64,000 nt of DNA from an uncultured Anaerolineales bacterium (GCA_964588925.1 CAZPTI010000001.1:26933-90932); one strand, 5' to 3'; shown: positions 16,714 through 63,066, counted from the stretch's first letter. Notes: a model not told the origin generated them from the letters alone. A program made the numbers and translations.

Positions 16714-17934
<1,221 letters not shown>

Positions 17935-17953
17935 TCCGTTAGGAACCGAGCTC

Positions 17954-17993: not shown

Positions 17994-18005
17994 CCCTGTC
18001 CCTAT

Positions 18006-18036
18006 TTGACAATAGACGCTTTGTCGGGAGTATAAT
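18006..18036 (+). promoter_or_regulatory. Candidate promoter (TTGACA, 19 nt, TATAAT) for the LTD exoprotein gene
   Basis: TTGACA at 18006-18011 and TATAAT at 18031-18036. The spacer is 19 nt, longer than optimal. Confidence 0.5.
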
Positions 18037-18105
18037 CTCCGCTCGGAAGCTTCTTTCTTCCACCCATCGCGCCATCGTTGCCTAACGAAAGGGTGGAGCC
18101 TCATC

Positions 18106-21255: not shown

Positions 21256-21261
21256 CGAGTA

Positions 21262-21312
21262 GTCCGTCGATTATGTCGGGAGTTCAGGGAATAGCCCGCG
21301 TAATCGACGGAC
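21262..21312. terminator. Hairpin between convergent genes (possible bidirectional terminator)
   Basis: 12-bp perfect stem GTCCGTCGATTA/TAATCGACGGAC with a 27-nt loop. No U-tract on either strand. Confidence 0.4.
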
Positions 21313-21315
21313 CAG

Positions 21316-30394: not shown

Positions 30395-30485
30395 CAGATC
30401 AAATCATAGCACACGCGCCACGGGTCATCGCAATGTTGCCGTTGCCGGAGAGCCTGCGCCGCGGCTTGGGCGACTTAATGCGGAG

Positions 30486-30494
30486 TGCTATAAT
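30486..30494 (+). promoter_or_regulatory. Extended -10 promoter element TGCTATAAT upstream of the amidase gene
   Basis: TGCTATAAT lies 79 nt before ATG 30573. Confidence 0.5.
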
Positions 30495-30572
30495 CTTATC
30501 AGGGCTTGTATCTTGTCCTGCGCGTAGACCCGCTTCGCTTGTCCTCATCCTCACCAGTGAGAGGAAGCTGCC

Positions 30573-31430: not shown

Positions 31431-31436
31431 TGCGTG

Positions 31437-31445
31437 TGCTATAAT
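31437..31445 (+). promoter_or_regulatory. Extended -10 promoter element TGCTATAAT upstream of the M50 protease gene
   Basis: TGCTATAAT lies 30 nt before TTG 31475. Confidence 0.45.
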
Positions 31446-31474
31446 TCGAGGAACAGACTGACACGGAGCTTTCG

Positions 31475-32104
31475 TTGTTCGATTTCGACATTCCAACTCT
31501 GTTCGCCAAGGTGGTGATCCTCCTGGTGGGCTTTCCCATTCACGAGCTGGCGCACGCGTGGGTCGCGTACCGGCTCGGCGACAACACCGCGAAGTATCAG
31601 GGCCGGCTCACGCTGAATCCGCTGGCCCACCTCGATCCGCTCGGCTCGCTCCTCCTGCTCGTCAGCTTCATCGGTTGGGCGAAACCGGTGCCGGTTAACC
31701 CGTACCGCTTGAAATACGGGCCGCGCGTGGGGCACGCGATTGTGGCCGCGGCCGGCCCCGTGAGCAATCTGCTGATGGCCTCGCTCGTCGCGATCCCGTG
31801 GCGGCTCGGCGCGTTCGTCAACGCAGGCCCCGCGGTCCAACAATTCGCGCTCATGTTCGTCGGCATCAACGTCGCGCTGTTCCTGTTCAACCTGATCCCG
31901 CTCGCGCCGCTCGATGGCAACAGCGTGCTCAACGGGGTTGTCGGACAGCGGATCGCGGCGGTGCTGCGACCGCTTCAAACCTACGGGCCGTTCATCCTGA
32001 TGGGCCTGTTCCTGCTGAGTTGGGTTTCTCCGCAATTGAACGTGCTGGGGCGCTATCTCAACCAGGGCATGCTAAGCGTGACGCGTTTCCTGCTGGGCAG
32101 TTGA
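31475..32104 (+). CDS. Site-2 protease family (M50) membrane metalloprotease
   Basis: HELAHAW (HExxH) and the second motif FNLIPLAPLDG. TTG start. Confidence 0.85.
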   Translation: MFDFDIPTLFAKVVILLVGFPIHELAHAWVAYRLGDNTAKYQGRLTLNPLAHLDPLGSLLLLVSFIGWAKPVPVNPYRLKYGPRVGHAIVAAAGPVSNLLMASLVAIPWRLGAFVNAGPAVQQFALMFVGINVALFLFNLIPLAPLDGNSVLNGVVGQRIAAVLRPLQTYGPFILMGLFLLSWVSPQLNVLGRYLNQGMLSVTRFLLGS

Positions 32105-48272: not shown

Positions 48273-49894
48273 TGCAAACCGATCTCCCTCAACCACGCGC
48301 GCCCCGACTGTGGGCGCCGACCCTCATCGTCTTCATCTCCAGCGCGTGCATCATGGTGCTGGAACTGGTCGCCGGACGTATGGTCGCGCCTTACGTTGGC
48401 GTGTCACTCTATACGTGGACCAGCATCATCGGCGTGATCCTGGCCGGCATCAGCCTCGGCAACTATCTCGGCGGCAAGCTGGCGGACCGCTGGGCGTCGA
48501 CGCGGCTGCTCAGCCTGCTCTTCCTGCTTGCGGGGCTGACCAGCATCGGCGTGCTGCTGGTTGACCGGCTCGGCGGCATCCTGCCCGACTCCTGGCCGAT
48601 GGTTGTCCGCATTATCGCGCTCGTGGCTGCGGTGTTCTTTATTCCTGCGGTCATCCTGGGGACGGTCTCGCCGGTCGTTACAAAACTCGCGGTGCGCGAC
48701 CTTGCCAGCACCGGCAGCACGGTCGGGCGCATCTCGGCCGCGGGCACGGTTGGTAGCATCGTCGGCACCTTTGCCACCGGCTTCGTGCTCATCGCCTGGT
48801 TCGGCACGCACGCCATCGTGTGGGGTGTGGCGGTCATCCTCCTGCTCATGGCGCTCGGCTTCTTCGTCGCCGGCACGGCCACGCGCAGCCGAGTTGTCGC
48901 AGCCGTGCTGGGCCTTGCGCTCATCGGCGGGGCCACCGCGGTGGCTACTGCGGAGGGATGGACGAAATCGCGCTGCTCGCTGGAGACAAACTACTTCTGC
49001 ATCAACGTGCGCGAGGATGAGCGCGAGGGCGCGCCCGTCCGCATCCTCATCCTTGACCGCCTTGTCCACTCCTACAGCGACCTGAATGACCCGACGAAAC
49101 TGGTGTATGGCTACGAGAAAGTGTACGCCGAAGCGACCGAGTATCAGAGCGTCAAACATGACGATATGTCCGCGCTCTTCATCGGCGGCGGTGGCTACAC
49201 GTTTCCGCGCTACATGGAAGCGGTCTATCCGGGCAGCGCGCTCGACGTGATCGAGATCGACCCGGGTGTGACTGAGACAGCGTACCAGTTGCTCGGCCTG
49301 AGTCGCGACACGCAAATCCGCTCCTTCAATGAGGACGCGCGCATGTACCTCGAACGCGAACCAGACCGGCAATACCGGCTCATCATGGGCGACGCGTTCA
49401 ACGACTACTCCGTGCCGTACCATCTGACCACGCGCGAATTTAACGAACGCGTGAAGGCGTGGCTGGCGGACGATGGGCTGTATATGGTCAACCTGATTGA
49501 TGGGCCGCGGCGCGACTTCCTCCGCGCGTACGTCCACACACTCAAGGAGTCTTTTGACCACGTCTATGTCGTGCCCGCGTTTGGCAGTTGGCGCGAATCG
49601 CCGCGCGTCACGTTCGTGCTCCTCGCCTCACAGCAGCCGCTGGACCTGGAGCAGTTCAAGCAGATCGACGCGGGCGACGGCGACCACGCGATCACGCGGC
49701 TGATTCTGCCGGATGCGGAAGTCGACAAAATCCTCGGCGAAGGTCGCCTCGTCACGCTCACCGACCAGTATGCGCCGGTTGATCAGATGCTGGCGCCGGT
49801 GGCGCGCGGGGAAGTCGCGCGGCCTGATTCGCCCTCGCCCACAGGCGCGCCGGCGTCGGGCGCAGCGCCCGCGCGGACTACGCAGCCGCAATGA
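48272..49894 (+). CDS. Spermidine-synthase-like (polyamine aminopropyltransferase family) protein with an N-terminal multi-TM domain
   Basis: About 7 TM helices, then LFIGGGGYTFPRY, VIEIDPGVTE and GDAFND. ATG 48272 overlaps the mutM TGA by 1 nt; TTG 48269 is an alternative start. Confidence 0.8.
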   Translation: MQTDLPQPRAPRLWAPTLIVFISSACIMVLELVAGRMVAPYVGVSLYTWTSIIGVILAGISLGNYLGGKLADRWASTRLLSLLFLLAGLTSIGVLLVDRLGGILPDSWPMVVRIIALVAAVFFIPAVILGTVSPVVTKLAVRDLASTGSTVGRISAAGTVGSIVGTFATGFVLIAWFGTHAIVWGVAVILLLMALGFFVAGTATRSRVVAAVLGLALIGGATAVATAEGWTKSRCSLETNYFCINVREDEREGAPVRILILDRLVHSYSDLNDPTKLVYGYEKVYAEATEYQSVKHDDMSALFIGGGGYTFPRYMEAVYPGSALDVIEIDPGVTETAYQLLGLSRDTQIRSFNEDARMYLEREPDRQYRLIMGDAFNDYSVPYHLTTREFNERVKAWLADDGLYMVNLIDGPRRDFLRAYVHTLKESFDHVYVVPAFGSWRESPRVTFVLLASQQPLDLEQFKQIDAGDGDHAITRLILPDAEVDKILGEGRLVTLTDQYAPVDQMLAPVARGEVARPDSPSPTGAPASGAAPARTTQPQ

Positions 49895-50787
49895 AAGTCT
49901 TCTACTGCGACCACTTCACCTACCCGCTGCCGCCCGGCCACCGCTTTCCCGCGGCAAAGTACACGATGCTGCGCGAGCGCGTGGCGCGCGAGCTGGGCGA
50001 CCGCTGCGAAATGGTGGTCCCGGAAGGGGCCACCGACGAGCAACTGCGCCTTGTCCACGAGCCTGCCTATTTGGAGAAGGTGTTCACCGGGACGTTGAGC
50101 GTAAAGGAGGTGCGGCGGATCGGGCTGCCGTGGTCGCCGGAACTGGTGGAGCGGTGCAGGCGGTCGGTGGGGAGCACGGTGGAAGCGTGTCGCGCGGCGC
50201 TTGAGGAGGGGCTGGCGGTCAGCCTGACCGGCGGCACGCATCATGCGTTTGCCGACCGCGGCGAGGGCTTCTGCGTGTTCAACGACTGCGCGGTAGCCGC
50301 GCGCGTCGCGCAAAGCGAGGGCCGCAGTCAGCGATTGGTCATTATCGACTGCGACGCGCACCAGGGCAACGGCACCGCCGCGATCATGGCGAACGACCCT
50401 ACGGTCTACACCTTCTCCATGCACGGCGCGAAGAACTTCCCGTTTCACAAAGAGCGGAGCGACTGCGACGTAGAGTTGCCGGACGGCGCAAGCGATGCCA
50501 TGTTCCTCGACCTGCTCGACGCCGCGCTCGACCGCGTCCTGCCCGCCGCGCGCGCCGACCTCGCCGTTTACCTAGCGGGTGCGGACGCTTATGCGGGCGA
50601 CAGCCTCGGCAGGCTCGGCGTGACGAAAGCCGGCCTCGCCGCGCGCGACCGGCTCGTCTTTGAGCGGTGTCGCGAGGCCGGATTGCCCGTCGCGGTCGTG
50701 ATGGGCGGAGGGTACGCGCGGCGGCTGGAAGACACCGTTGACATTCAGTTCGCGACGGTCGCGACTGCGTTGAGCTATTCCGTATGA
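49891..50787 (+). CDS. Histone deacetylase-family amidohydrolase (acetylpolyamine/acetoin-utilisation type)
   Basis: GGTHHAFADRGEGFCVFND, IIDCDAHQGNGT and MGGGY. ATGA overlap with the upstream gene. Confidence 0.85.
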   Translation: MKVFYCDHFTYPLPPGHRFPAAKYTMLRERVARELGDRCEMVVPEGATDEQLRLVHEPAYLEKVFTGTLSVKEVRRIGLPWSPELVERCRRSVGSTVEACRAALEEGLAVSLTGGTHHAFADRGEGFCVFNDCAVAARVAQSEGRSQRLVIIDCDAHQGNGTAAIMANDPTVYTFSMHGAKNFPFHKERSDCDVELPDGASDAMFLDLLDAALDRVLPAARADLAVYLAGADAYAGDSLGRLGVTKAGLAARDRLVFERCREAGLPVAVVMGGGYARRLEDTVDIQFATVATALSYSV

Positions 50788-51851
50788 AAACCTTTAAGCG
50801 TCTGCTCGTCGTCCTCGCCTGGATGATCTCCGGCGCGGCCGCCTACCTTTTCTTTCTCAACCGCATCCTCATTCAGTCGCGCGACAAGCGCCTGAAGAGC
50901 TTTATGATTCGCGGCGGCGGTCTGCTCTCTGTCGGTACCAGTGCGGCAATTGGCTGGCGCACCGGGTTAAGCCGATGGATGGTTGTGCCCGCTGTGGGAT
51001 TGGTCGTGACAGTTGCGGGCGAGGCGCGGCGGCTGGCGCTCCGCGCGCGTCATGCCGGCGCGCCGCCGGTGCGCGAAGAGGGGCCGCGCCTCTCGCTCGC
51101 CAGGCCGAACACCACGACCGACCTTGTCCTCCGTTTCTACGAGACACGCGTCGAAGGATGGCGCGGGCCGCGCGTGCGCGTCGCGCACATCAGCGACTTT
51201 CACCTCAACCATCATCTGCCGCTCGAGTACTTCACCGATGCGCTGCGTCGGGTGGCCGCCACCGAACCCGATTTCATCTTTTTCACCGGTGACTTCATCA
51301 CCCGCGCGAAGTTTGTGCCGCTGATCCGCGCGGTTCTCCCGCTGGCAAAGGGCAGGTTGGGCACGTTCGGCGTGATCGGCAACCACGACCGCTGGGCCGA
51401 CATTGACGAAGTGCGCGCCGCGGCGCGCGCGGCCGGCATCCGCATGCTCGGCTCGACATTCGTTCATCTGCCGCTGGAAGACGGCTCCGCGGTTCGCATC
51501 GCGGGCTACGAGCATCCGTGGAACATCGGCCCGGCGGATATTCCCGCGTCGTCCGGCGCGGGCGAGTTACTTCTCGTCCTCACCCACACGCCCGACAATA
51601 TCCCCAGACTCCAGGGCCGCGGCATCGACGCGGTCTTCGCGGGCCACTATCACGGCGGTCAGATGCGGCTGCCCGGCCTGGGCGCGCTCGTCGTGCCGTC
51701 AAAATACGGGCGACAGTACGACCACGGTCACTTCGTCTTCGGCCGCACGCACCTCTTCGTCACGTCGGGCGTAGGGTCTGCGGAGCCGCCCATTCGGGTC
51801 TGGTGTCCGCCGGACGCGTTGATCGTTGACTTCCTGCCGGAAGGTGGTTGA
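50784..51851 (+). CDS. Membrane-anchored metallophosphoesterase (YaeI-like)
   Basis: N-terminal TM helices, then HISDFHLN, FFTGDFI, GNHD and AGHYHGG. ATGA overlap with the upstream gene. Confidence 0.85.
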   Translation: MKTFKRLLVVLAWMISGAAAYLFFLNRILIQSRDKRLKSFMIRGGGLLSVGTSAAIGWRTGLSRWMVVPAVGLVVTVAGEARRLALRARHAGAPPVREEGPRLSLARPNTTTDLVLRFYETRVEGWRGPRVRVAHISDFHLNHHLPLEYFTDALRRVAATEPDFIFFTGDFITRAKFVPLIRAVLPLAKGRLGTFGVIGNHDRWADIDEVRAAARAAGIRMLGSTFVHLPLEDGSAVRIAGYEHPWNIGPADIPASSGAGELLLVLTHTPDNIPRLQGRGIDAVFAGHYHGGQMRLPGLGALVVPSKYGRQYDHGHFVFGRTHLFVTSGVGSAEPPIRVWCPPDALIVDFLPEGG

Positions 51852-51853
51852 CG

Positions 51854-52510
51854 ATGCCCCCCTTGCGCGTGCTGATCGTTGCCGAAGACCCACTCGCGCG
51901 GGCCGGACTCGCTGCGCTGCTTGCCGCTGAGGAAGAGGTAGTCGTTGTGGGCCGGGCGGCGCCAGCGGAAGACCTGGCCGCCACCGCGGACGCGCTCCAG
52001 CCGGACGTGATCGCGTGGGACATGGGCTGGCAGAGTGGTGTCGCGCTAACGCGCATTGCCGATTCCGCGCTGGAGATTCCCGCCCTCGCGCTCATCTCCG
52101 AGGAAGATGATGCGCACGCAGCGCTCAACGCAGGAGCATCCGGCGCGATCCGGCGCGATTCCGGCGCCGCGCGCATTGCCGCCGCGTTGCTCGCTATCGC
52201 GGAACGCATGATCGTCCTGGATGCCGAATTCAGCCGCGCGCTGGAGCGCCCCCGTCCGCCTCGACTCTCCCCCGACCTGAGTTTGCGCCCTGAGAACGAA
52301 CCTCCGTTGCTTGAAGAACTTACGGCGCGCGAGCTGGAAGTGCTCCGTCTCCTTGCCGAGGGCTTGCCGAACAAGACCATCGCGCAGCGGCTCGACATCA
52401 GCGAGCACACAGTCAAGTTTCACGTCAACTCGCTGCTCGGCAAGCTGGGTGCGGGCAGCCGCACGGAGGCTGTCGTCCGCGCCACCCGCCTGGGTTTGAT
52501 CCTCCTGTAA
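51854..52510 (+). CDS. LuxR/NarL-family response regulator (atypical receiver)
   Basis: Receiver-like VLIVAEDPLARAGL...PDVIAWDM. The C-terminal HTH is LTARELEVLRLLAEGLPNKTIAQRLDISEHTVKFHVNSLLGKLG. ATG 51854 lies 6 nt after AAGGTGG. Confidence 0.8.
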   Translation: MPPLRVLIVAEDPLARAGLAALLAAEEEVVVVGRAAPAEDLAATADALQPDVIAWDMGWQSGVALTRIADSALEIPALALISEEDDAHAALNAGASGAIRRDSGAARIAAALLAIAERMIVLDAEFSRALERPRPPRLSPDLSLRPENEPPLLEELTARELEVLRLLAEGLPNKTIAQRLDISEHTVKFHVNSLLGKLGAGSRTEAVVRATRLGLILL

Positions 52511-52625
52511 TCCGCTTTCCGCTCACCTAACCGTTTTATCAGGTCGCTTCCTGCCCGGACAGGCGATGCGCCGCGCCTCCCAGCCGAGGTACCATGCGGT
52601 CAATCAATCGGGATGGAGGCAACTC

Positions 52626-53522
52626 ATGGCATCGGAAGTATTGACTGCATTCTCCGACGCGCTGGCGTCGGCAGTGGAAACCGCAGGGCCGAGCATCGTC
52701 CGCGTGGAAGGGCGACGCCGCCTGCCCGCGACCGGCGTGGTCTGGTCTGCGAACGGACTAATCGTTACCGCGCATCACGTCGTCGAACGCGACGACAACA
52801 TCGGCATCGGACTGGCGGATGGCCGAACGGTCACGGCGACCCTTGTGGGCCGCGACCCGACGACCGATCTTGCGCTCCTCCGCGCGCCGATTCAGGGGCT
52901 GACCGCGCCTTCGTGGGTGGACGGTTCGGCTCTCAAAGTCGGGCATATGGCGCTGGCGCTCGGCCGGCCGGGACAAAGCGTCATGGCGACGCTCGGCATC
53001 GTCAGCGCGCTCAAGAAGGAGTGGCGCACGCCGGCGGGCGGACAGTTCGACTATTACTTGCAGACCGACGCGCTCATGTATCCGGGCTTCTCCGGGGGGC
53101 CGCTCGTGGACGTCTCGGGCCGCTTCCTCGGCCTCAACACGTCGGCCATGCTGCGCGACGTGACACTGACCATTCCCGCCGGGACGATTCGACGCGTGGC
53201 TGAGGCGCTCGCCGCGCATGGCCGCGTGAAGCGCGGGTACCTGGGCGTGGGCGCGCAGACCGTGCGCCTGCCGAAGGCCGTCGCGGAGCAGGTGGGGCAG
53301 TCCACCGGCTTGCTGCTCGGCTCGGTGGAGGCCGACAGCCCCGCGGAGCGCAGCGGCCTTTTCATGGGCGACACGCTGCTCAGCCTCGACGGTCAGGGCA
53401 CAGCCGACCTGGACGACCTGCTGGCCCTGCTCACCGGCGACCGCGTCGGCAAGACGGTCCCCGCGCGCATCCTCCGCGGCGGCCAGGTGACTGAGGTCAA
53501 GGTAACGGTCGGCGAGCAGTAA
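52626..53522 (+). CDS. S1C (HtrA-like) serine protease with a PDZ domain and no signal peptide
   Basis: Catalytic triad contexts TAHHV, DLALL and GFSGGPLVD. PDZ region GLLLGSVEADSPAERSGLFMGDTLLSLDG. ATG 52626 lies 6 nt after GGAGG. Confidence 0.8.
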   Translation: MASEVLTAFSDALASAVETAGPSIVRVEGRRRLPATGVVWSANGLIVTAHHVVERDDNIGIGLADGRTVTATLVGRDPTTDLALLRAPIQGLTAPSWVDGSALKVGHMALALGRPGQSVMATLGIVSALKKEWRTPAGGQFDYYLQTDALMYPGFSGGPLVDVSGRFLGLNTSAMLRDVTLTIPAGTIRRVAEALAAHGRVKRGYLGVGAQTVRLPKAVAEQVGQSTGLLLGSVEADSPAERSGLFMGDTLLSLDGQGTADLDDLLALLTGDRVGKTVPARILRGGQVTEVKVTVGEQ

Positions 53523-53557
53523 CCCAAGTTCGCAACGGACGTTACAGGGGGTTGGAC

Positions 53558-54145
53558 ATGGACAAGGTGTTGAGCGCGCAAACAGAAAGCGCGGACGTTA
53601 TCGACAACGTATTGAAAAGTCTGGCGCAGGTGAGAAATGGCCGCCGCGGCGCGGGCGCAGGAACCATCTGGCATCCCAAAGGGCTGATCGTGACGAATGC
53701 GCACGTGGCGGGGCGTGGACCGCTCAAGGTGGAGTTGCAGGACGGCCGCGCGTTCGATGCGGAAATCCTCGCCGTCGATCGTGAGCGCGACCTGGCTGCG
53801 CTGCGCATCGCAGCGGAAGACCTGCCGACGATCCAGCTGGCCGACTCGCGCGCGGTGCGCCCCGGCCAGTGGGTGATGGCGGTGGGGCATCCTTATGGCA
53901 TCATCGGTTCCGCGACGGGTGGCGTGGTCATTGGCATGGGCCGCCAGTGGCCGGAGATGCCGCCGGCGAAGCGCGACTGGCTCGTCGTGGGGCTGCATAT
54001 GCGGCCGGGTCATTCCGGCGGACCGTTAGTGGACGTGCGCGGGCGGCTACTGGGAATTAACACTATGATCAATGGCCCCGACGTTGGCTTCGCGATTCCA
54101 ACGCACGTAGTGGTGGAGTTCCTGAAGGGGATGGTGGGGAAGTAA
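53558..54145 (+). CDS. S1-family trypsin-like serine protease (no PDZ, no signal peptide)
   Basis: TNAHV, DLAAL and GHSGGPLVD. ATG 53558 follows CAGGGGG. Confidence 0.75.
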   Translation: MDKVLSAQTESADVIDNVLKSLAQVRNGRRGAGAGTIWHPKGLIVTNAHVAGRGPLKVELQDGRAFDAEILAVDRERDLAALRIAAEDLPTIQLADSRAVRPGQWVMAVGHPYGIIGSATGGVVIGMGRQWPEMPPAKRDWLVVGLHMRPGHSGGPLVDVRGRLLGINTMINGPDVGFAIPTHVVVEFLKGMVGK

Positions 54146-54160
54146 GCGGCCAACAATAAA

Positions 54161-54193
54161 AGACCCGACGGGTTCTGGTAACCCATCGGGTCT
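54161..54193 (-). terminator. Rho-independent terminator after the secreted protease gene
   Basis: 14-bp stem with one mismatch, AGACCCGAUGGGUU/AACCCGUCGGGUCU on the minus strand, followed by UUUUAUUGUUG. Confidence 0.75.
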
Positions 54194-54201
54194 CTTGCTC
54201 C

Positions 54202-55779
54202 TTACAGTCGATCCATCTCGATCGGGTCCAGCTCCAGCACATCCGGGTCGTCTTCCAGGATTTCCAGCGCATCATCCTCCGCGATACGCTGATACCCCTT
54301 CGCGCCGACGATCACGCTGTACACTTCCCCGCGATCCAACGGTCGGTTGAGCACGAACGCGCCGTCCGCCCCGGTCACGCCGAACGCAAAGACCGTGTTC
54401 TCCTTATTCTCCGTATCGTCCGCGTCGAAGTCGTCCACCGTCTGGCCGGGGATCAGAATGGCAATCACCGCGTTGCGAATGGCGCGCTTGTTGGCGTGAT
54501 CGACGATGGCGCCCGTAATCGTCACGCCAGTGTCCTGCGCGGGCGGCTTCTGCGGCGGCCGGTTGGCGCCCGGCTGCCTGCCAACAGTGAAACCGGCTTC
54601 CTGCACCAGATCTCCACGCAGGAACACCTGCAAGTTGTACTCGCCATCGGTCAGGCCGCGCTTGCCGCTCAGGCTCAGGTCCAGCACGCCCGAAGTCCCG
54701 AAGTCCCACTCCAACTCCGGCTCGCCCGTCACGTCCTGGCCCTCGTACTGCCACGTATAGCCCCACGACGTGCCGTTGCGCATATTTTCATACGGCAGCC
54801 CCGCGTGCACTTCCTTGATGCCAGTCGGGAACACCTCGGCCTCGCCCGTGATGCCGCTGTTGTCGTCAAACCCAGCGCCGAAGGTAATTTCGCCGAACGA
54901 ACCGCGGCCCGTCGTCTGGCCGGGTGGGTTGGACGGATTCTTCGGCGGGGTTGCCACCTGGCCGCCGCTGGCGCCGACGCGACGCGCCTCTTCGATGTAG
55001 GGCACCGCGCGGTTCACCGGGCGGATCAGGTAAATCACGTTGCCAGAGCGGTCTTGCAGTCGCTGCGTCGGCACGCCGATCAACTCGCCGTTCGCGTTTA
55101 GCGCAGCGCCGCCCGAGTTGCCCTGGTTTACCAGTACGTCGGTTTTGAACCAGTCAAAAACGTCGTCGCCGTCCTCGTCCAGGAAGCCGGAGATGCGGCC
55201 CTCGGTAGCGGTGACCGTGTCACCCGCTATGCCGGGATAACCTACCACAATCACATCGTCAAGCGTTTCGACTGTGTCCGAATCTGCCATCGGCATGGTC
55301 ACGACCGGCAACGTATCGCCGATCTTCTGTTTGCTGTTGAACAGAGCAATGACCTTGAGCACGGCAATGTCGAGCTTCGGGTCGACGGAGAGCGCCTGCG
55401 CGACATAGGCTGGCTTCGGCAGCTTACGCGGATCGTCCGTCACCGCGATAACCGAGAGCGCTTTCGAGTTGAAGAAGTCGCCGGGCTGGAGGCCGAGCGC
55501 TTCCAAATCCTCATCCCGAATGCCGTCATCCGGGTAGCCGATGCAGTGGAAGTTGGTCAGGATGTACCCTTCCTGGTCGAGCATGGAGCCGGAGCACAGG
55601 CTGCCCGCATTTTCATCGGCATCCAGAGGCGTCAGGATTTTGACCGACGCGCGCAAGATGCGCTGCGCGATGTCCTTATCGACCGCCTGCGCTGGCCGCG
55701 CGCTGCCGACGAGGCTGAACGCAATGCTGACCAGAACCAGGGCCGCGAGAATCCATGTTTTGCTCTGTCGCTTCATCAT
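54202..55779 (-). CDS. Secreted S1C trypsin-like serine protease with C-terminal beta-sandwich (carboxypeptidase-regulatory-like) domains
   Basis: Signal peptide MMKRQSKTWILAALVLVSIAFSLVGSARPAQA, then TNFHC, DIAVLKV and NQGNSGGAALN. The C-terminus is GVTITGAIVD...VTGADGAFVL. Confidence 0.8.
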   Translation of the reverse strand: MMKRQSKTWILAALVLVSIAFSLVGSARPAQAVDKDIAQRILRASVKILTPLDADENAGSLCSGSMLDQEGYILTNFHCIGYPDDGIRDEDLEALGLQPGDFFNSKALSVIAVTDDPRKLPKPAYVAQALSVDPKLDIAVLKVIALFNSKQKIGDTLPVVTMPMADSDTVETLDDVIVVGYPGIAGDTVTATEGRISGFLDEDGDDVFDWFKTDVLVNQGNSGGAALNANGELIGVPTQRLQDRSGNVIYLIRPVNRAVPYIEEARRVGASGGQVATPPKNPSNPPGQTTGRGSFGEITFGAGFDDNSGITGEAEVFPTGIKEVHAGLPYENMRNGTSWGYTWQYEGQDVTGEPELEWDFGTSGVLDLSLSGKRGLTDGEYNLQVFLRGDLVQEAGFTVGRQPGANRPPQKPPAQDTGVTITGAIVDHANKRAIRNAVIAILIPGQTVDDFDADDTENKENTVFAFGVTGADGAFVLNRPLDRGEVYSVIVGAKGYQRIAEDDALEILEDDPDVLELDPIEMDRL

Positions 55780-55785
55780 CCACCC

Positions 55786-56391
55786 CTACTTCAACTCAAC
55801 CGAACCCAGGATGCGATCCCACGTCGCGCCAAGACCGTCGAAAGCGTCAGAAGCGGCGAGCATTCGCACGACTGTCAGCGTATCGCCGTTGCGCAGGAGC
55901 GCGTCTGAGCCGCGCGCCACGATGGGCAGCGCATCGGCGGAGGCGAACATCGGGTCGGCCACGTACGCATAATCCACGCGCACCGCATCCTTGCCGCGCA
56001 CCTGCGTCGGCTCGATGCTCAACACGCGGTACCCCAGCAAGTCCTTCGCCTGCTGATCCGACCACTTCAACGCGAAGTCACCCAGCGATTGAGCGGTGCG
56101 GCTCACATCCGCTGCGGGCAACTGCTGCGCAACGACGCGGGCGGGGAACAGATCGCCGAACCCCTCGCCCACGCTCAACACCACACCCGGCGCGTCGCTC
56201 GCGATCGGCGTCCAGCCAGCCGGATAGCTCAAGGAGAGACCGCCTTCGTTGAAGGTCGTCGTCCGGTTGACCACGAGCGTCCGCGCGACCAGGCCGATCA
56301 GCAGCAGGACGCCTACCAGCAGCCACACGAGCCATTCGGGCTCTTCTTCACGGAACGTGCGTCGTCGAGGAGACAGAGTTGTGGCGGTCAT
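55786..56391 (-). CDS. Hypothetical membrane-anchored protein
   Basis: Single TM helix (WLVWLLVGVLLLIGLVA) followed by a ~150-aa ectodomain with no motif I recognise. It overlaps the upstream gene by 4 nt. Confidence 0.6.
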   Translation of the reverse strand: MTATTLSPRRRTFREEEPEWLVWLLVGVLLLIGLVARTLVVNRTTTFNEGGLSLSYPAGWTPIASDAPGVVLSVGEGFGDLFPARVVAQQLPAADVSRTAQSLGDFALKWSDQQAKDLLGYRVLSIEPTQVRGKDAVRVDYAYVADPMFASADALPIVARGSDALLRNGDTLTVVRMLAASDAFDGLGATWDRILGSVELK

Positions 56392-57338
56392 TGGGACGCT
56401 CCTCCCGCGGCAGGCGCAGGCCGCGCGCCACGGCGCATAACGGCAAACAGGACCGCAAAGGTCACGGCGGCGAGGACGGCGGCGAGAATCAGGCCGTTGA
56501 GCGGCGTGGGGCGCAGGCCGCTGCGCGTGATCTCACTAAGCAAGGTCGTGACGACGCCGTTCAATACGGCCGCCAGCAACAGGCCCACGGGCAGCCAGAA
56601 CGGCCCGCGGTTCTCGAATTTCGCGCGGCCGAGGAAATAACCGGTGACGCCGGCAAAGGAAGCCTGCGCCAGCGCAACCACGGCCACGCGCACCGCGCCC
56701 ACGCCGAGGTCAACGCCGCCATTGGAGAGCACGTAGTCGACGTTGAGGTAAGTCGCGTAGCCGAGGCCAGCGGCGGCGCCGTAAATGATGCCGTCGATGC
56801 GCTCGTCAAACTCCGCGCTGCCGAATACGCTGTAGCGCACCGCCGCGTACTTGAGAAATTCCTGCGTGATGCCGACGATGACGACGCCGGCCAGCAGACG
56901 CAATCCCAGGCTGCCGCCGGCCCACTCATTGACGCGGAACACATCGCGGATAAGCGGTTGGCCGACCGCTGCGGCCAGCAGCAGGCCGAGGATGAACACA
57001 CCCGCGAGATACTGCTTCGGTTCCGGCTCGGTGCGGTCCTGGAGGTAAAAGACGACCAGCCAGATCACAGCAGGGACAAGGGCAAGCAGCAGGCCGACCG
57101 CCACCAGCGCCGTCCCACTCAGCGCATTTTCGGGCGCGAGGAAGAACACTGCGGCCACGAAGGCAGCCAGCCCAACGATCAGGGCCGCCATCGCCGTCCA
57201 CATGCCCTTGCGATTTCGCCCGACGCGACCGTAATGCTCGTCGCAAAACGCGCGGCCGCCAAGCATTCTCGCCGCGCCCGTCACCGGTTTTCCGCACACA
57301 CAACAAACTTCACCCACCATAAACACATCCCTCCTCAC
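56388..57338 (-). CDS. PrsW-family intramembrane protease with an N-terminal zinc ribbon
   Basis: CCVCGKPV...FCDEHY, multiple TM helices, ITQEFLKY (ExxK-type motif) and DGIIYGAAAGLGYATYLN, which resemble PrsW signatures. Confidence 0.55.
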   Translation of the reverse strand: MRRDVFMVGEVCCVCGKPVTGAARMLGGRAFCDEHYGRVGRNRKGMWTAMAALIVGLAAFVAAVFFLAPENALSGTALVAVGLLLALVPAVIWLVVFYLQDRTEPEPKQYLAGVFILGLLLAAAVGQPLIRDVFRVNEWAGGSLGLRLLAGVVIVGITQEFLKYAAVRYSVFGSAEFDERIDGIIYGAAAGLGYATYLNVDYVLSNGGVDLGVGAVRVAVVALAQASFAGVTGYFLGRAKFENRGPFWLPVGLLLAAVLNGVVTTLLSEITRSGLRPTPLNGLILAAVLAAVTFAVLFAVMRRGARPAPAAGGASQ

Positions 57339-57344
57339 GGTGTC

Positions 57345-58706
57345 TCACAAATCCGAACTTTCCTCGCCGGCGGCATTCGCAAAGACCAGCCCCGCCGTTT
57401 GAATGACCCCCTGCGCGTAGGCGTCCAAACCCTGACGTCGACGCTCGATCTCGCGCAGGTTCATGCGCGCTCGGCGTCCGCCGTCGGGCAAGGAATACTC
57501 GAATCCCAGCGCATGTCGCAGCCACTTCTCGGCCTCCGCCAGTTGATCCTTTTGCAGCAGCAGGTAGCCGAGGTTTGCCGCAGCGCCCGCATTCTTCGGG
57601 TCCGCGCGTAGCTCTTGCCGCAGCAGCGCCTCGCGGTTATCGCGGCCGTCATCCTCGCTACTGCCAACAAAACGACGCCCCACATCGAAGACGATGTCTT
57701 CCACCAGCTCCTTGAAGTCCTGCGGTCGCTGCGTCTCCGCGCGGTGGCGAACGAGGCAGCGGCTGCGCGGGACGATAAAGTCCAACTCTTCGGGCACGCG
57801 AATGATCAGCTTAACTGACTGCGCTTCGAGGTTCGAGATGTTCAGGTCGATCTGCTCGCCGCCGTCAACGACTGCATTGATCAACTCCTCGTGGTCTTCA
57901 TACATCAACGAATGCACCAGGATCGGCCATTCGTTCCGGTTTATGAGGTGAACGGTCCCCGGCTCCTTCTCAAGCACCAGCCCGTCACCCTCGAAGCGGC
58001 TGCCGGTTTCGAGCGCCACGTCGCGGCGCAGGGGATAGCGCACGTCGAGGATTTCGATGAAATCCTGGCTGTAATTCTTGAAAATGCCGACGTGCTCGTG
58101 AATGTCCTTGCCTTCGAGCAACTCGATCACGACGCGGCTGCCGATGTAACGCTCCAGCAGCGGATCGTAAATCGACCCCACCTGGCCGAGCACCTTGCCG
58201 CTGAGGCTCTTGATCGAAGACGTGCCGTCTGCCGCGATATAGCGGCCACCGGTCTTTCCGGCGCGGCCGAGTACGAGGCCGAAAACTTCATTTAGAGAAT
58301 CTGTGGCCGTGCCGAGGAAGTTCTGCGCGCTGCGCCGAAAGCGCCGCCCTATGCTGGGATGAAATGAGGAGTCAATGTCTCTCGCGCGCTGCTGCTTATT
58401 CTTGTCGGAGAGCTGCGCAACGTAGCGGTAGAGCGCCTGGATGTCGGCGTATTCGTTAGCGTAGAGGAGGTAAGAGGATTCGAGGTGGCGTTCGTCTTGC
58501 ACGGTGTCGGTATAGACGAACTCCATGCCGGTCGAGACCACATGGAGCTCGCCCCATACCAGCTTGCCGTTAGCGCGTTCGAGGGTAACGTGAAATCCTT
58601 CCCAAGACTTCAGGCAACGATCTCTCGTTTTGGTACGCAAATATGCGGCCGTCAGGGAGAGGAAGAAGATGACGCCGATGGTGATGATCAGCGAGAGATC
58701 GATCAT
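57345..58706 (-). CDS. Hypothetical protein with an N-terminal TM helix and C-terminal TPR-like repeats
   Basis: Start set to ATG 58706 (MIDLSLIITIGVIFFLSLTAAYL); the longer ORF-track N-terminus overlaps the upstream gene. The C-terminus is AANLGYLLLQKDQLAEAEKWLRHAL. Confidence 0.65.
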   Translation of the reverse strand: MIDLSLIITIGVIFFLSLTAAYLRTKTRDRCLKSWEGFHVTLERANGKLVWGELHVVSTGMEFVYTDTVQDERHLESSYLLYANEYADIQALYRYVAQLSDKNKQQRARDIDSSFHPSIGRRFRRSAQNFLGTATDSLNEVFGLVLGRAGKTGGRYIAADGTSSIKSLSGKVLGQVGSIYDPLLERYIGSRVVIELLEGKDIHEHVGIFKNYSQDFIEILDVRYPLRRDVALETGSRFEGDGLVLEKEPGTVHLINRNEWPILVHSLMYEDHEELINAVVDGGEQIDLNISNLEAQSVKLIIRVPEELDFIVPRSRCLVRHRAETQRPQDFKELVEDIVFDVGRRFVGSSEDDGRDNREALLRQELRADPKNAGAAANLGYLLLQKDQLAEAEKWLRHALGFEYSLPDGGRRARMNLREIERRRQGLDAYAQGVIQTAGLVFANAAGEESSDL

Positions 58707-58719
58707 ATAGTGTTTTCGG

Positions 58720-58974
58720 TTATTTGAGCCTTGCGCGCACCTGATCCACAATAAATTCGTTCGTCGTGTGCTTGCCGGTTGCGGCCTTCGAGTAGACAAG
58801 CTGCCCGTCCAGCGTCACCTCGAAGCGACCATTGCCCGAGGGGATAAGTTGAATGGACTCAATCGGATGGCGTCCGCCAACAATGGGCTTGAACGTGTTC
58901 ACCAGCGTCTCCGTCAAACTGACGGCCCGGGGCGTGTAGTTTCAAGCGATGCAGAATTCGATGGTGACTTTCAT
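58720..58974 (-). CDS. Rdx/SelW-like redox protein, predicted selenoprotein (in-frame UGA at 58942-58944, CxxU)
   Basis: ATG 58974 (SD GAGGGGAAG) reads MKVTIEFCIA-UGA-NYTPRAVS and runs in frame into the ORF-track ORF 58720-58917 (LTETLVNTF...LIPSGNGRFEVTLDGQLVYSKAATGK...). The pattern IEFC..U.Y..RA...L..F...LIP...G.FEV..DG.L.YSK..TG matches the Rdx family. Confidence 0.7.
58887..58947 (-). promoter_or_regulatory. SECIS-like stem-loop enclosing the UGA
   Basis: The minus-strand RNA has a 7-bp basal stem GCUUGAA (58947-58941, containing the UGA) paired with UUCAAGC (58893-58887). An apical hairpin CCGUC-AGUUU-GACGG (58925-58911) starts 16 nt after the UGA and has G at loop position 2. Confidence 0.5.
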
Positions 58975-59132
58975 GGCTTCCCCTCTGCCTCTTGCCGGGC
59001 GTGCTGCACGATCTGGCGGACTCCCACTGACGCGGCTGGCTCGTAGCGGTGTCGAGGAGCGCCATGAACTGCTGGAAGGACGAGTTCAGGGCAAGGGTTC
59101 CTCACCCCGCGAAACGACAACGATCAGGCGAC

Positions 59133-59354
59133 TCAGACAACCGGGCGCGTGACGCTGCGCGACTGGGCGAGTTGCGCTTCCAGCTCGGCGCGGCGCTCGG
59201 CCGCGGCGCGCTTGCCCTCTTCGAGCACCAGGTTGATGCGCCCCTTGATGCTGCTTTTCGTCTGCTCGCCCGACTGCGGAGCCATGAAAAGCGCCACGGC
59301 AGCGCCGACCACTGCGCCGATAATCAAGCCCTCGAAGAACTTCCCACCGTCCAT
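59133..59354 (-). CDS. YtxH-domain protein
   Basis: MDGGKFFEGLIIGAVVGAAVALFMAPQSGEQTKSSIKGRI. ATG 59354 is preceded by GGAGAAGGAG. Confidence 0.75.
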   Translation of the reverse strand: MDGGKFFEGLIIGAVVGAAVALFMAPQSGEQTKSSIKGRINLVLEEGKRAAAERRAELEAQLAQSRSVTRPVV

Positions 59355-59444
59355 CTGACGCTCCTTCTCCCATAAACACAACTCGTGAGCGAACGCGCGC
59401 AAGTATAGCACATCGCCGCGGGCGTCAAAAAACCAACTTTATCG

Positions 59445-61184
59445 TTAACAATGCGCGACCATATAGAGACCGTCGCGCTCGAACCCCTGCGCCTCGTAGT
59501 AGCGCCGCGTGCCAATAGCCGAAATCACAGCCAGGCGCGCAAAACCCGCTTCTCGCGCCCGGCGCCGCGCCTCTAAAATGAGCCGTCGCCCCAGCCCGAG
59601 ATGCTGCGCCTCGCCCGCGCTGTCCGATCCGATGCCGAGCGCCGGGCCGTATACGTGCACCTCGCGGATCAACGCCGCGCCGCGCAATTCGGGCAGCGCC
59701 TGCCAGATTTCCGCCGTCTCGACGATAGCCGGTTGATCGCTGTTCAGCCGCGGCAGCGACAGCCGCAGAAAGCCCGCCAGCGCGCCCTCCGCCGTCTCGT
59801 AAGCAAGAAACTGCTCGCGCGTCCCGTCTGTGTCGTACTCCTCCACTGCCAGGCGCAGGTCACTCCACGCCACGCGCGCGCCGCGCACCTCGCGGCAGCG
59901 GATGCAGTTGCAGCGCCGCCCTTGCTCGGCCAGCAGCGAGAGCGCCAGTTGGCGCAAGTTGGACTTCTTGCTGCCCGCAACGATGTCATCCGCCGGGATG
60001 TCGCGGAAGACGCGATTGATGCGGCAGTAGCGGGGCACAATGGCTTTGCAATCGGCGACGAGGGGAACGAGTTCTTCATCTGTGTACGGTCGGAATTGGC
60101 CTGCGCGCCACAGGTCGTACAATTCCGTGCCGTCGATTATGGAGCACGGGTAAATCTTCAACTCATCGGGCCGAATGGCAGGGTCCGTCCACAGCCGCAC
60201 GAAATCGGCCCGATCCGACTCAGGCGTCGCGCCGAAGAGGTTCGGCATCCAGTGCAAGTGCAACTTGAACCCGGCCGCGCGCAGCAACCGCACCGCGCGG
60301 CGCACCGCCTCCACGTCGTGCCCGCGCTGGTTGAGCGTCAGGATGCGCTCGTCGAGGCTCTGGACGCCCAGCTGCACCTTGGTCACGCCCAGCCGCCGCA
60401 TATGCAGCACTTCGGCGGGCGTCACCCAGTCGGGCCGCGTCTCCACCACGAGGCCGACGTTGCGGTGCGTTGCGGACTCGTTCTGAGCCTGCGCGTCGAG
60501 CAAGGCAGGCCAGTCCATCGTCTCCCGCTCGCTTGACGCGGTCAGCGGCCCCAGATCGGTCGCGTCGACTTGATCCGCATCGTTCATCGCCTGCAAGCAC
60601 CGCCCGACGAACCACTGCCGGTACTGCTTCGAGTATGCGCCCCATGTGCCGCCGAGGATAAGCAACTCCACCTTGTCGGCCACGTGCCCCATTGACTTGA
60701 ACGCGGTGAGCCGCGTGACGACTTGGCGGTACGGGTCGAAACCGCACTGCTCCGCGCGGCGCGCGCCCGGCTCGTTGGGCAGGTAGCTCTTCGGCATATT
60801 GTCCGCATCGGGGCAGAAGATGCAGCGGCCGGGGCAGCCCGCCGGCTTGGTCAGCACCGTCACCGGCGCAACGCCGGAAGCGGTGCGCACCGGCTTCATT
60901 TGCAGCCGCCGTAGCGTCTCGCGCTCGAATGGAATGACGCCCGCCGCGGTCAGCTCCTTATATGCCATGACCAGCTCGATCTTGGCGTAGAAGCCGCTCT
61001 CGCCGCTTGCCAGGCTCGTCTTGTTCGCCTTCGGGTGTTGCGCTAGAATCCGCATCAACGATTCGTCGTCCCAGTCCGCCGCGTTGCGGACCGCATCGAA
61101 GATGCGCAGCAGCATCTCCTGATGGCTGCGAATATCAAAATCGCGGCCGTGGGGCCGCCATTCCTTCTTAACGTTATCGACCAT
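59445..61184 (-). CDS. elp3: Elp3-family radical SAM / GNAT enzyme (tRNA U34 cm5 modification type)
   Basis: Radical-SAM cluster motif GCPGRCIFCP, a TIM-barrel region (VQLGVQSLDERIL), and the C-terminal GNAT motif A HLGLGRRLILEARRRAREAGFARLAVISAIGTRRYYEAQGF. Confidence 0.85.
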   Translation of the reverse strand: MVDNVKKEWRPHGRDFDIRSHQEMLLRIFDAVRNAADWDDESLMRILAQHPKANKTSLASGESGFYAKIELVMAYKELTAAGVIPFERETLRRLQMKPVRTASGVAPVTVLTKPAGCPGRCIFCPDADNMPKSYLPNEPGARRAEQCGFDPYRQVVTRLTAFKSMGHVADKVELLILGGTWGAYSKQYRQWFVGRCLQAMNDADQVDATDLGPLTASSERETMDWPALLDAQAQNESATHRNVGLVVETRPDWVTPAEVLHMRRLGVTKVQLGVQSLDERILTLNQRGHDVEAVRRAVRLLRAAGFKLHLHWMPNLFGATPESDRADFVRLWTDPAIRPDELKIYPCSIIDGTELYDLWRAGQFRPYTDEELVPLVADCKAIVPRYCRINRVFRDIPADDIVAGSKKSNLRQLALSLLAEQGRRCNCIRCREVRGARVAWSDLRLAVEEYDTDGTREQFLAYETAEGALAGFLRLSLPRLNSDQPAIVETAEIWQALPELRGAALIREVHVYGPALGIGSDSAGEAQHLGLGRRLILEARRRAREAGFARLAVISAIGTRRYYEAQGFERDGLYMVAHC

Positions 61185-61917
61185 GCAACCTCACACCGTT
61201 CAAGCGTTGCTGGCGCTCAACCGGCAGTTCTACGACCAGTTCGGCGGAGACTTTGCCGCGACGCGGCGCTCGCATCCACCCGGATACGACCGGATTTTAC
61301 CTTATCTCGCTCGCGCGACCAACGTCCTGGATCTCGGGTGTGGCAGCGGGCGATTGCTGAGTTACCTCGCGCAGCGAGATTGGTCCGGGCTGTACGTTGG
61401 CCTTGATAGCAGCGCGCGCCTGTTGGAAGAGGCCGCCGCACTCCCGCTCGGCGCATCTCGCATCCAGCGCACGCTGATCCACGCAGACCTCTTTAACGCA
61501 CCCTGGCCTGAAGAAGTCCAGAAGCCGGGGACGTTTGACGCGCTCGTCAGTCTCGCCGTGCTCCAACACATCCCCGGCGCGGCAAACCGCGCCACCTTTT
61601 TGCGCCGGTGCGCGGGCCTGCTGCCTCAGGGCAAGCCCTTCATTTTGACCACGTGGCAGTTTATGGCGTCCGAGCGCCTGCGTAAGCGCCTCGTCCCGTG
61701 GGAGCGAGTCGGGATCTCCGAAGACGAACTGGAGCGGGGGGATTATCTTGTGGGGTGGGGGGAAGGGTCGCCGGGCGCGCGCTACTGCGCGCTGATCGAC
61801 GAGAGAGCGTTAATTAACATGGCCGCCGGGGTGGGGCTCGATGCGGTCGAGACCTTCACCTCCGACGGCCATGAGGGCAGACTGAACCTTTACGCAATTT
61901 TCGAGAGGCGTCCTTGA
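61183..61917 (+). CDS. Class I SAM-dependent methyltransferase, Trm9-like
   Basis: FYDQFGGDFAATRRSHPPGY, VLDLGCGSGRLL, FDALVSLAVLQHIP, LLPQGKPFILTTWQF, LVPWERV and RYCALIDERAL parallel Trm9 motifs (IAPHFSQTRYKPWP, DVGCGNGKYL, FDFAISIAVVHH, GGQALIYCWALEQ, FVPW, RYYHLY.EGEL). Confidence 0.65.
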   Translation: MQPHTVQALLALNRQFYDQFGGDFAATRRSHPPGYDRILPYLARATNVLDLGCGSGRLLSYLAQRDWSGLYVGLDSSARLLEEAAALPLGASRIQRTLIHADLFNAPWPEEVQKPGTFDALVSLAVLQHIPGAANRATFLRRCAGLLPQGKPFILTTWQFMASERLRKRLVPWERVGISEDELERGDYLVGWGEGSPGARYCALIDERALINMAAGVGLDAVETFTSDGHEGRLNLYAIFERRP

Positions 61918-61920
61918 TCG

Positions 61921-63066
61921 CTAGCGCCAGGTGAAGCGCCGCGTCACGCTCGCGGGACTGGTCGCTTCGCCGGGCTTGTCCGAGCCGCCCCGGCGCACCT
62001 GCACGCGCCATGTGTAATCGTGGCCCGCCGTGCCGTTTGGCCGGTAGTCGGTCGGCAGCCGCCACGTCGTGCTCTTCGTCCACCAGCTTGCGACCGGCGT
62101 TTCCTTCTCAGGAGACATCAAGGTCACTACGTACCATTCGTCGGGCGCCAACACCCCCACCGAGGTCCACGTGAGCAGCACCGAATCCTCACCCGTGATA
62201 ATGGCGCCATCGCCCGGCGTCAGCAGGCTGGGAGCGGTCAAGCCGGGGATTTCTGTCGGCGTGGGCGGGAGCGGCGTCACGGCAATCGTCGGCATGGGGG
62301 TCGGCGTGGCGGGCACCAGCGGGATCAACAGCGCGCGGCCGATATGAAGCGTCTCGCCCGGCTTCATGCTGTTTGCCTGCATGATCCAGTCGACCTGCGA
62401 CTTGAACCGCGCTGCCAGGCCAATGATCGTGTCGCCCGAAGCCACCGTGTACATCAGGCCAGTCGTGCCGGGGGTTGCGGTGGGACCAGGTCCGCCGGAC
62501 GGCCCCGCGACCGGAATCAGCAGCTCCTGCCCGATGCCGATGCGCCCGTCCGCGGGCAGCCCGTTTGCGGAGATAATGTCCTTGATCGAGGAGCCGTACT
62601 TTTGAGCAATCACCGCGACCGATTCGCCCGCGGCAACCTTGTGCTTGACCGGGCCGGCCGGCGTCGCAGCGACGGCCGCTGGCACGGGTGTCTCGGTTGG
62701 CGCAAGGGTGGGCGGCGGGAGCGGCGTGGGCGAAGGGGTTGCGGTAGGATCATCCAATTGGAGCGCCGCGACCAGCGCCACAGTAGGGGTCGCCGCGGCC
62801 CGTTGCGCGCTCAACACGTCCTGAGTGGCTGTCGTGCGCGGTTCGGGGGAGTCGGGCGCGCGCAACCACCAAATTGCCAGCACGCCCGCGATCACTGCGA
62901 ACAAGAACAAATCCGCCCACGGCAGGCGGAACCGGCGGCGAGGCGCAAATTCTAGCGCTGCGCCACAGAAGAAACAGGTTTGGGCTTTCTGAGCAACTCG
63001 TGTCCCGCAATGGGGACAGCTTCGTTGTTGGCCGTAGCTCGGCCGGGGTAAATGCGGTTCGCTCAT
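61921..63066 (-). CDS. Membrane-anchored protein with an N-terminal zinc ribbon, a Pro/Thr linker and two LysM domains
   Basis: CPHCGTRVAQKAQTCFFCG, TM helix LFLFAVIAGVLAIWWL, and LysM domains HKVAAGESVAVIAQKYGSSIKDIISANGL and YTVASGDTIIGLAARFKSQVDWIMQANSM. Confidence 0.8.
   Translation of the reverse strand: MSEPHLPRPSYGQQRSCPHCGTRVAQKAQTCFFCGAALEFAPRRRFRLPWADLFLFAVIAGVLAIWWLRAPDSPEPRTTATQDVLSAQRAAATPTVALVAALQLDDPTATPSPTPLPPPTLAPTETPVPAAVAATPAGPVKHKVAAGESVAVIAQKYGSSIKDIISANGLPADGRIGIGQELLIPVAGPSGGPGPTATPGTTGLMYTVASGDTIIGLAARFKSQVDWIMQANSMKPGETLHIGRALLIPLVPATPTPMPTIAVTPLPPTPTEIPGLTAPSLLTPGDGAIITGEDSVLLTWTSVGVLAPDEWYVVTLMSPEKETPVASWWTKSTTWRLPTDYRPNGTAGHDYTWRVQVRRGGSDKPGEATSPASVTRRFTWR

Follow-up and report, generated by a model that had tools for sequence, protein, structure and literature searches.

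SelW-like proteins with a CxxU motif were recognized in bacteria some twenty years ago. For the recoding signal, the reference SelB-binding element is that of Escherichia coli fdhF, whose minimal upper stem-loop begins 11 nt downstream of the UGA, contains a bulged U, and presents G23/U24 (counted from the U of the UGA). Among the selenoprotein families of the Sargasso Sea data set, the SelW-like proteins are the most abundant (48 genes; PMC1088965), and they also rank first in the GOS data set, where 427 Sec forms and 56 Cys forms were found (PMC2398784). Completed genomes from several phyla also encode them, and organisms that decode Sec rarely have the Cys forms (PMC1794560). PrdB (pfam07355), which has a UxxC motif, appears in the same selenoprotein lists (PMC1088965, PMC1794560, PMC2398784). 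Bacterial SECIS elements are stem-loops located directly 3' of the UGA, with a small apical loop that contains a G (PMC1088965, PMC12013277). For Chloroflexi, both selenoproteins (PMC1794560, Table 2; PMC13326102) and tRNA-Sec (PMC5389517) have been reported.

The locus described here lies in a 64-kb stretch of DNA from an uncultured Anaerolineales bacterium, which was analyzed as a whole (hereafter the window) and has a G+C content of 64.6%. The region of interest is very likely a gene for an 84-aa SelW-like (Rdx-family) selenoprotein, in which the UGA at codon 11 specifies selenocysteine and which standard annotation reports too short. An earlier sequence-only reading of the window had proposed a selenoprotein gene of the Rdx/SelW-like type, with a CxxU motif and a SECIS-like structure downstream of it, and the proposal is supported by the family match, a census of TGA codons among homologs, and covariation. 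The main features of the gene are as follows:

58720..58974, minus strand: predicted SelW-like/Rdx-family selenoprotein coding sequence of 84 codons (Met1...Cys8-Ile-Ala-Sec11...Lys84) plus the TAA stop at 58722-58720, from translation and profile scores
58977..58985, minus strand: GAGGGGAAG, a Shine-Dalgarno-like stretch 2 nt 5' of the ATG, read from the sequence, with a putative role as ribosome-binding site
58951..58953, minus strand: TGC for Cys8, the first redox residue of CxxU, from an invariant Cys column and the alignment with PDB sequences
58942..58944, minus strand: in-frame TGA at codon 11, the predicted Sec codon, from the TGA census and the alignment with PDB sequences
58720..58917, minus strand: 65-aa ORF of ORF finders with a TTG start at 58917-58915, artefactual because the TGA is taken for a stop

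In the minus-strand frame that opens with the ATG at 58974-58972, translation gives MKVTIEFCIA-UGA-NYTPRAVS...RLK over 84 codons. This confirms the upstream start that the sequence-only reading had placed in the same frame as the 65-aa ORF; the ORF itself, with its TTG start, and the putative ribosome-binding site at 58985-58977, 2 nt before the ATG, are also present as it had claimed. Its further expectation that gene callers would truncate such a gene is borne out by the public databases. A search of 5.8 billion proteins yielded 86 homologs, and all 86 are called short. Most are about 53-75 aa in length, with a few made longer by frame errors, and they cover 55-82% of the query. The called start codons vary among TTG, GTG, and ATG and fall at different codons. 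Several of these homologs nevertheless bear JGI names such as 'predicted Rdx family selenoprotein' or 'selT/selW/selH-like putative selenoprotein'. In public databases, the gene is thus mis-annotated as a fragment of 60-65 aa, and all of its 86 close homologs are likewise recorded as fragments. A corrected annotation would add one more selenoprotein to the proteome of this organism, and the corrected gene would imply selenium dependence and Sec-decoding machinery in this Chloroflexota lineage.

Family membership was examined by profile searches with the 84-aa product, in which U was written as C. The product matches Pfam Rdx (PF10262) with 66.4 bits (cutoff 22.6), with residues 2-80 aligned to profile positions 1-73/74, and NCBIfam TIGR02174 (CXXU_selWTH) with 52.3 bits against a cutoff of 34.2. 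In comparison, the 65-aa ORF reaches 38.2 bits for Rdx over profile positions 23-73 only, and its 30.1 bits for TIGR02174 are under the cutoff of 34.2. The assignment to the Rdx/SelW-like family made from the sequence alone is thus upheld for the full-length product. For the equivalog NF041051 (SelTWH_Campy), the score of 68.7 bits is below the cutoff of 88; judged by this score, the gene is akin to the Campylobacter-type subgroup and is not a member of it. A sequence search of the PDB returned the Cys-form bacterial Rdx proteins 2FA8, 2OBK, 3DEX, 2OKA, and 2P0G, as well as human MIEN1 (2LJK). The YCxxC of 2FA8, 2OBK, and 3DEX is in register with FCIA-U of the window gene, and the TGA corresponds to the second Cys. 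The claim that the TGA falls at the second redox residue therefore agrees with the alignment to the CxxC of solved bacterial Rdx structures. The Cys8 column is invariant among 63 distinct sequences (TGC in 51 and TGT in 12). Similarity to the solved structures suggests that the product adopts a thioredoxin-like fold.

The related loci number 82, of which 80 came from a scan of one genome per species and two from exact protein look-up. According to record titles, they belong to Anaerolineae, Caldilineae, and other Chloroflexota; to Gemmatimonadota (Palauibacter and Longimicrobiales); to Acidimicrobiia (Actinomycetota), Armatimonadota, and Dormibacterota; and to one gammaproteobacterial MAG, such that at least five phyla are represented in all. 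One of the loci, L076, belongs to Leptolinea sp. HRD-7, a relative in culture. Residues 1-84 align in the related genomes by tblastn. The codon-11 column contains TGA in 81 of the 82 related loci and in the window (64/64 in the first set, then 18 further), and TGC or TGT occurs in none. The exception, L025, is frameshifted. In this locus (L025:3001-3251, MAG MFD02979.bin.2.144), the frame of the Rdx homolog is lost between the N-terminal segment and the remainder, and a PrdB-like neighboring gene also loses its frame past the TGA region; the frameshift is probably a long-read indel error rather than pseudogenisation. One of the loci, L001, is an independent Logan assembly that is 99.6% identical to window positions 48760-62154 and has the same gene, TGA, and hairpin.

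The codons that precede the TGA are also conserved. At the aligned start, 44 of 63 distinct homologs have ATG and six have GTG. For the Ile, Glu, Tyr/Phe, and Cys codons before the TGA, positions 1 and 2 are near invariant and the variation is found in position 3, with entropies at positions 1/2/3 of 0.20/0/0.82 bits for Ile, 0.12/0.12/0.71 bits for Glu, and 0/0/0.70 bits for Cys. This pattern indicates that the stretch upstream of the UGA is translated in this frame. The sequence-only reading had allowed that close homologs might start downstream and leave the segment MKVTIEFCIA-x-NYTPRA unconserved; instead, the segment and the TGA are kept in all readable loci. These observations bear on the idea that the short ORF of 60-65 aa, starting from GTG or TTG, is the real protein, with the 10-codon upstream frame being a leader peptide or untranslated. 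Gene callers do report such an ORF for all 86 database homologs. However, the 10 codons before and 8 codons after the TGA are conserved in frame as protein, and the short product would be without beta1 and the family-defining CxxC/U, consistent with its match to profile positions 23-73 only and its failure to reach the TIGR02174 cutoff. Moreover, the called starts differ among homologs, and the TTG "start" of the 65-aa ORF falls within the SECIS hairpin described below. Translation of the short ORF alone is accordingly hard to credit, and it is the least probable of the alternatives considered here.

For the UGA itself, codon reassignment is ruled out, as TGA is the stop of 16 of the 51 predicted genes in the window. 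Four other TGA-interrupted candidates in the window were rejected because they are antisense to or out of frame with real genes. The scan for TGA interruptions that was applied to the window did not flag the Rdx TGA, and its thresholds consequently miss cases in which the upstream ORF is short.

The RNA features that may direct recoding at this codon are the following:

58911..58925, minus strand: SECIS apical hairpin CCGUCA-GUU-UGACGG, with 6 bp and a GUU loop or 5 bp and an AGUUU loop, from folding, covariation, and synonymous sites
58941..58947, minus strand: GCUUGAA, 5' arm of a possible outer stem, holding the UGA; from the MFE fold, weakly supported
58887..58893, minus strand: UUCAAGC, 3' arm of the same possible stem, in codons Phe-Lys-Pro; from the MFE fold, weakly supported

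The apical hairpin begins exactly 16 nt past the UGA, and its loop G (58919) is the 23rd nucleotide after the UGA. In a single sequence, the fold energy is no better than that of shuffled sequences (z = -1.55 for 71 nt and +0.36 for 50 nt), so the case for a SECIS rests on the comparison of homologs. Among these, the hairpin has the consensus CCGYCA-GUN-UGRCGG. In a gap-free alignment of 64 sequences (A2), where the hairpin corresponds to columns 53-58 with 62-67, 95.8% of its cells are paired. The pair 56-64 is CG in 32, UG in 16, and UA in 13 sequences of the homolog alignment scored for pairing; over all 82 sequences (72 distinct in this segment), the counts are CG 29, UG 21, and UA 20, and C-A never occurs. 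Full flips or compensated pairs are found, for example, in L020, L031, L035, L072, and L079. None of 500 column shuffles reached the paired fraction, the number of cells changed on both sides, or the covariation score of the hairpin; this control ignores kinship, and related sequences can beat column shuffles without any structure, such that the result is supportive and does not amount to a probability. When the hairpin is slid by 1-3 columns, 24-55% of cells are paired. The first loop base is G in all 72 distinct sequences.

The hairpin overlaps conserved residues, with codons for Ala-(Val/Ala)-Ser-(Leu/Met)-(Thr/Ala), and part of its conservation is thus at the protein level. Synonymous sites were used to separate RNA-level from protein-level constraint, and they are frozen over exactly the five hairpin codons. 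The third-position entropies in these codons are 0.40, 0.28, 0.40, 0.12, and 0.60 bits, compared with 1.67-1.77 bits in the flanking Pro, Arg, Glu/Ala, Thr/Glu, and Leu codons. The Ser codon of the hairpin is AGT in 50 of 63 sequences, AGC in five, and TCN in none, despite the G+C-rich genomes. Taken together, the covariation, the invariant loop G, and the frozen synonymous sites identify the hairpin as a predicted bacterial SECIS, in line with the SECIS-like CCGUC-AGUUU-GACGG structure 16 nt downstream (58925-58911) that had been noticed at first reading. No Rfam model matched the element, and a permissive scan of 58700-59150 gave a chance miRNA match only (E = 6). A search of the window with two mismatches allowed found no copies of the hairpin besides the one at the Rdx site.

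The wider fold compares less well among homologs. The MFE structure from RNAfold combines a 7-bp outer stem, two short middle helices, and the apical hairpin. The outer stem GCUUGAA/UUCAAGC, in which the UGA was said to lie, does exist in the window sequence and in its MFE fold, but it is poorly conserved (72.8% of cells paired in A2), and roughly half of the sequences do not form its three outer pairs. In the conserved inner pairs, the invariant UGA-A faces a conserved Phe codon, and for this reason these pairs say little about selection at the RNA level. The middle helices are 33.9% paired in A2. Accordingly, neither the middle helix nor the outermost part of the 7-bp stem (three pairs) was accepted as conserved structure. 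The functional element is predicted to be the small apical hairpin, with the 7-bp stem around the UGA being poorly supported.

The SECIS core GCCGYCAGUNUGRCGG (A2 columns 52-67, L003-L082) is nearly identical in Chloroflexota, Gemmatimonadota, Acidimicrobiia, Armatimonadota, and Dormibacterota, and the proteins that carry it are only 45-55% identical between those groups. Such near-identity across phyla could reflect tight constraints imposed by SelB or a horizontal transfer in which gene and SECIS moved together. The phylum-spanning alignment of this element could be used as a covariance model for annotation.

As an alternative to Sec insertion, the UGA may be read through without Sec, with Cys or Trp inserted by a near-cognate or mischarged tRNA and the hairpin merely slowing termination. 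One example of such a route is the loading of Cys on tRNA-Sec when selenium is scarce. Since the corresponding column is Cys in the solved homologs, a Cys product would be functional. However, TGA is a normal stop in 16 of the 51 genes, TGC or TGT, which would be a simple way to encode Cys, occurs in none of the 82 loci, and the hairpin has the invariant loop G expected of a SelB ligand (PMC1088965). Furthermore, Cys carried on tRNA-Sec and delivered by SelB would still use the Sec machinery. Read-through of this kind is thus considered highly unlikely, and insertion of Sec is the preferred reading of the UGA.

Sec insertion calls for dedicated machinery, and the window was searched for it. 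Its 51 genes were called by GC3 and scanned against Pfam, and none encodes SelA, SelB, or SelD. ARAGORN and Rfam detected no tRNA-Sec in the 64 kb and found only a tRNA-Leu(CAA); ARAGORN also found no tRNA-Sec in the flanks of 60 related loci. When all loci and the window were searched by tblastn with unvalidated E. coli SelD, SelA, and SelB probes, there were no matches, which is a weak negative. Because 64 kb corresponds to about 1-2% of a genome, the absence of sel genes from the window is uninformative.

Good, if indirect, support for Sec decoding comes from a second gene interrupted by TGA in the relatives. In 17 Anaerolineae-clade loci, the Rdx gene is directly preceded by a gene of the GRDB/PrdB family (PF07355) that encodes about 251 aa, at these positions:

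L002:9132-9887, plus strand: PrdB-like gene
L004, L005, L008-L019, L022, and L025, at about 2150-2980 of each locus: PrdB-like gene

Its score of 143.7 bits for TIGR04483 is under the equivalog cutoff, and the gene is accordingly named PrdB-like. Every copy has an in-frame TGA within the motif LTPC-U-P[ILV]CQQS, and gene callers split the gene into two ORFs. A conserved hairpin, CAGUCC-GUN-GGACUG, is located 12 nt past this TGA and has the same apical design as the Rdx element. These two independent conserved TGA genes with similar hairpins show that the Anaerolineae clade of the window organism in all likelihood decodes Sec. The PrdB-like gene is absent at the locus in the window, L001, L003, L006, and L007.

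This absence, which extends to the nearest relatives L001 and L003, could reflect selenoprotein loss, and selenoprotein losses are common in bacteria (PMC1794560). Together with the lack of sel genes and tRNA-Sec within 64 kb, it is compatible with the Rdx gene being a relic, in which case the Sec machinery would have been lost in the organism or a recent ancestor, translation would stop at the TGA after 10 codons, and the gene would be a decaying remnant. Against such decay, the frame is intact, with a start codon, a Shine-Dalgarno-like site, no other stops, and a perfect hairpin, and two independent assemblies are identical here. The missing sel genes carry no weight given the small fraction of the genome covered. 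Moreover, L003 (89% protein identity), which is also without the PrdB-like gene, keeps both the TGA and the hairpin, and its differences from the window are mostly synonymous or conservative, which indicates continued selection. The relic explanation is therefore improbable, albeit somewhat less so than read-through without Sec, and the three alternatives jointly hold a small share of the probability. A functional selenoprotein gene remains the preferred explanation.

The genes around the Rdx gene in the window are the following:

59445-61184, minus strand: ELP3-like radical-SAM protein of 579 aa (Radical_SAM and Radical_SAM_C), upstream of Rdx
59133-59411, minus strand: YtxH-domain protein of 92 aa, upstream of Rdx
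57345..58706, minus strand: 453-aa protein with an N-terminal hydrophobic segment, starting 13 nt past the Rdx stop
56388-57338: PrsW-family intramembrane protease, next after the 453-aa gene
52566-55779: three trypsin-like/PDZ proteases, which follow a 201-aa protein beyond PrsW

The synteny of the YtxH and ELP3-like genes upstream of Rdx is conserved in 17 related loci, and the 453-aa gene occupies the same position in 15 Anaerolineae-clade loci, giving a conserved clade neighborhood of YtxH/(PrdB-like)/Rdx/453-aa/PrsW. The 453-aa protein has no match in Pfam or NCBIfam, and its gene is probably an operon partner that is co-transcribed with the Rdx gene. The run of the 453-aa, PrsW, and protease genes could represent a conserved envelope-proteolysis neighborhood. 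A limited literature search returned no description of this neighborhood or of the Rdx/PrdB-like adjacency. Elsewhere in the window, GC3 gave no confident gene call for 17934-21316 and 30394-31475, and the short ORFs at 18633-18920 and 19290-19649 are doubtful and without a Pfam match. In addition, a STAND/AAA-type NTPase gene (nSTAND1, TniB-like, 517 aa; 24129-25682, minus strand) adjoins a gene for a 938-aa GAF-SpoIIE (PP2C phosphatase) protein (21316-24132, minus strand); the two may form a signaling or defence-like pair unrelated to the Rdx finding.

In the proposed mechanism, translation would start at the ATG at 58974, and the ribosome would reach the UGA at codon 11. The hairpin at 58925-58911, acting as a bacterial SECIS, would recruit SelB-GTP-Sec-tRNA(Sec), and selenocysteine would be inserted at the UGA (58944-58942) in place of termination by RF2. 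Sec insertion in this organism presupposes selA, selB, selD, and selC, which its genome presumably encodes. The putative Cys8-x-x-Sec11 redox center would then cycle between the selenol/thiol and selenenylsulfide forms, and the product is most likely a small thiol-dependent oxidoreductase. A more speculative extension, and an unlikely one on balance, is that the Rdx and adjacent PrdB-like genes of Anaerolineae constitute a dedicated two-selenoprotein redox module. In such a module, the CUxxC reductase would be reduced specifically by the small CxxU protein, possibly with participation of the membrane-anchored 453-aa protein and the downstream PrsW protease. If so, the window organism would be a natural 'half-module' in which only the SelW-like partner is kept, and bacterial SelW-like proteins would have their first concrete partner and pathway. 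Apart from any such module, the Rdx/PrdB-like adjacency is a possible lead to the function of the SelW-like family.

Like the E. coli fdhF SECIS, the element in the window is a stem-loop that lies in the coding region shortly past the UGA, and its apical loop opens with GU. The window stem, however, begins 16 nt downstream of the UGA and shows no evident bulge, and the G/U are at 26/27 on the fdhF numbering. In the eukaryotic members of the same Pfam family (SelW, SelV, SelT, SelH, Rdx12, and MIEN1/C17orf37), the CxxU/CxxC motif and presumably also the thioredoxin-like fold are shared with the window product, and MIEN1/C17orf37 (2LJK) was matched in the PDB sequence search with E = 0.0023. These systems differ in having a 3'-UTR SECIS with a kink-turn quartet and in using SBP2/eEFSec, whereas the window element lies within the coding sequence, as in bacteria (PMC1088965). 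The solved Cys-form Rdx proteins 2FA8 (Atu0228), 2OBK, 3DEX (SAV_2001), 2OKA, and 2P0G can be aligned near full length (E = 4e-6 to 2e-3), and their [IV]x[FY]CxxC...RA motif matches IEFCIA-U-NYTPRA of the window gene. Unlike the window product, they have Cys at the UGA column, are about 20 residues longer, and are without the six-residue stretch GGRHPI, and the identity is low.

The closest counterparts are the bacterial SelW-like selenoproteins (PF10262 Rdx, formerly PF05169; TIGR02174), to which the window gene corresponds in family by profile, in length (about 80-90 aa), in the N-terminal CxxU, and in having an in-frame UGA and, directly after it, a small hairpin whose apical loop contains a G. 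Like the window gene, these genes are routinely truncated by gene callers. Nothing essential differs, and the window copy comes from an uncultured Anaerolineae-type member of Chloroflexota. The gene is thus a mis-annotated member of a well-known bacterial family and represents no new kind of system; what is mildly new relative to the known systems is that the SECIS core is nearly identical from phylum to phylum and that Rdx and PrdB-like genes are repeatedly adjacent in Anaerolineae.
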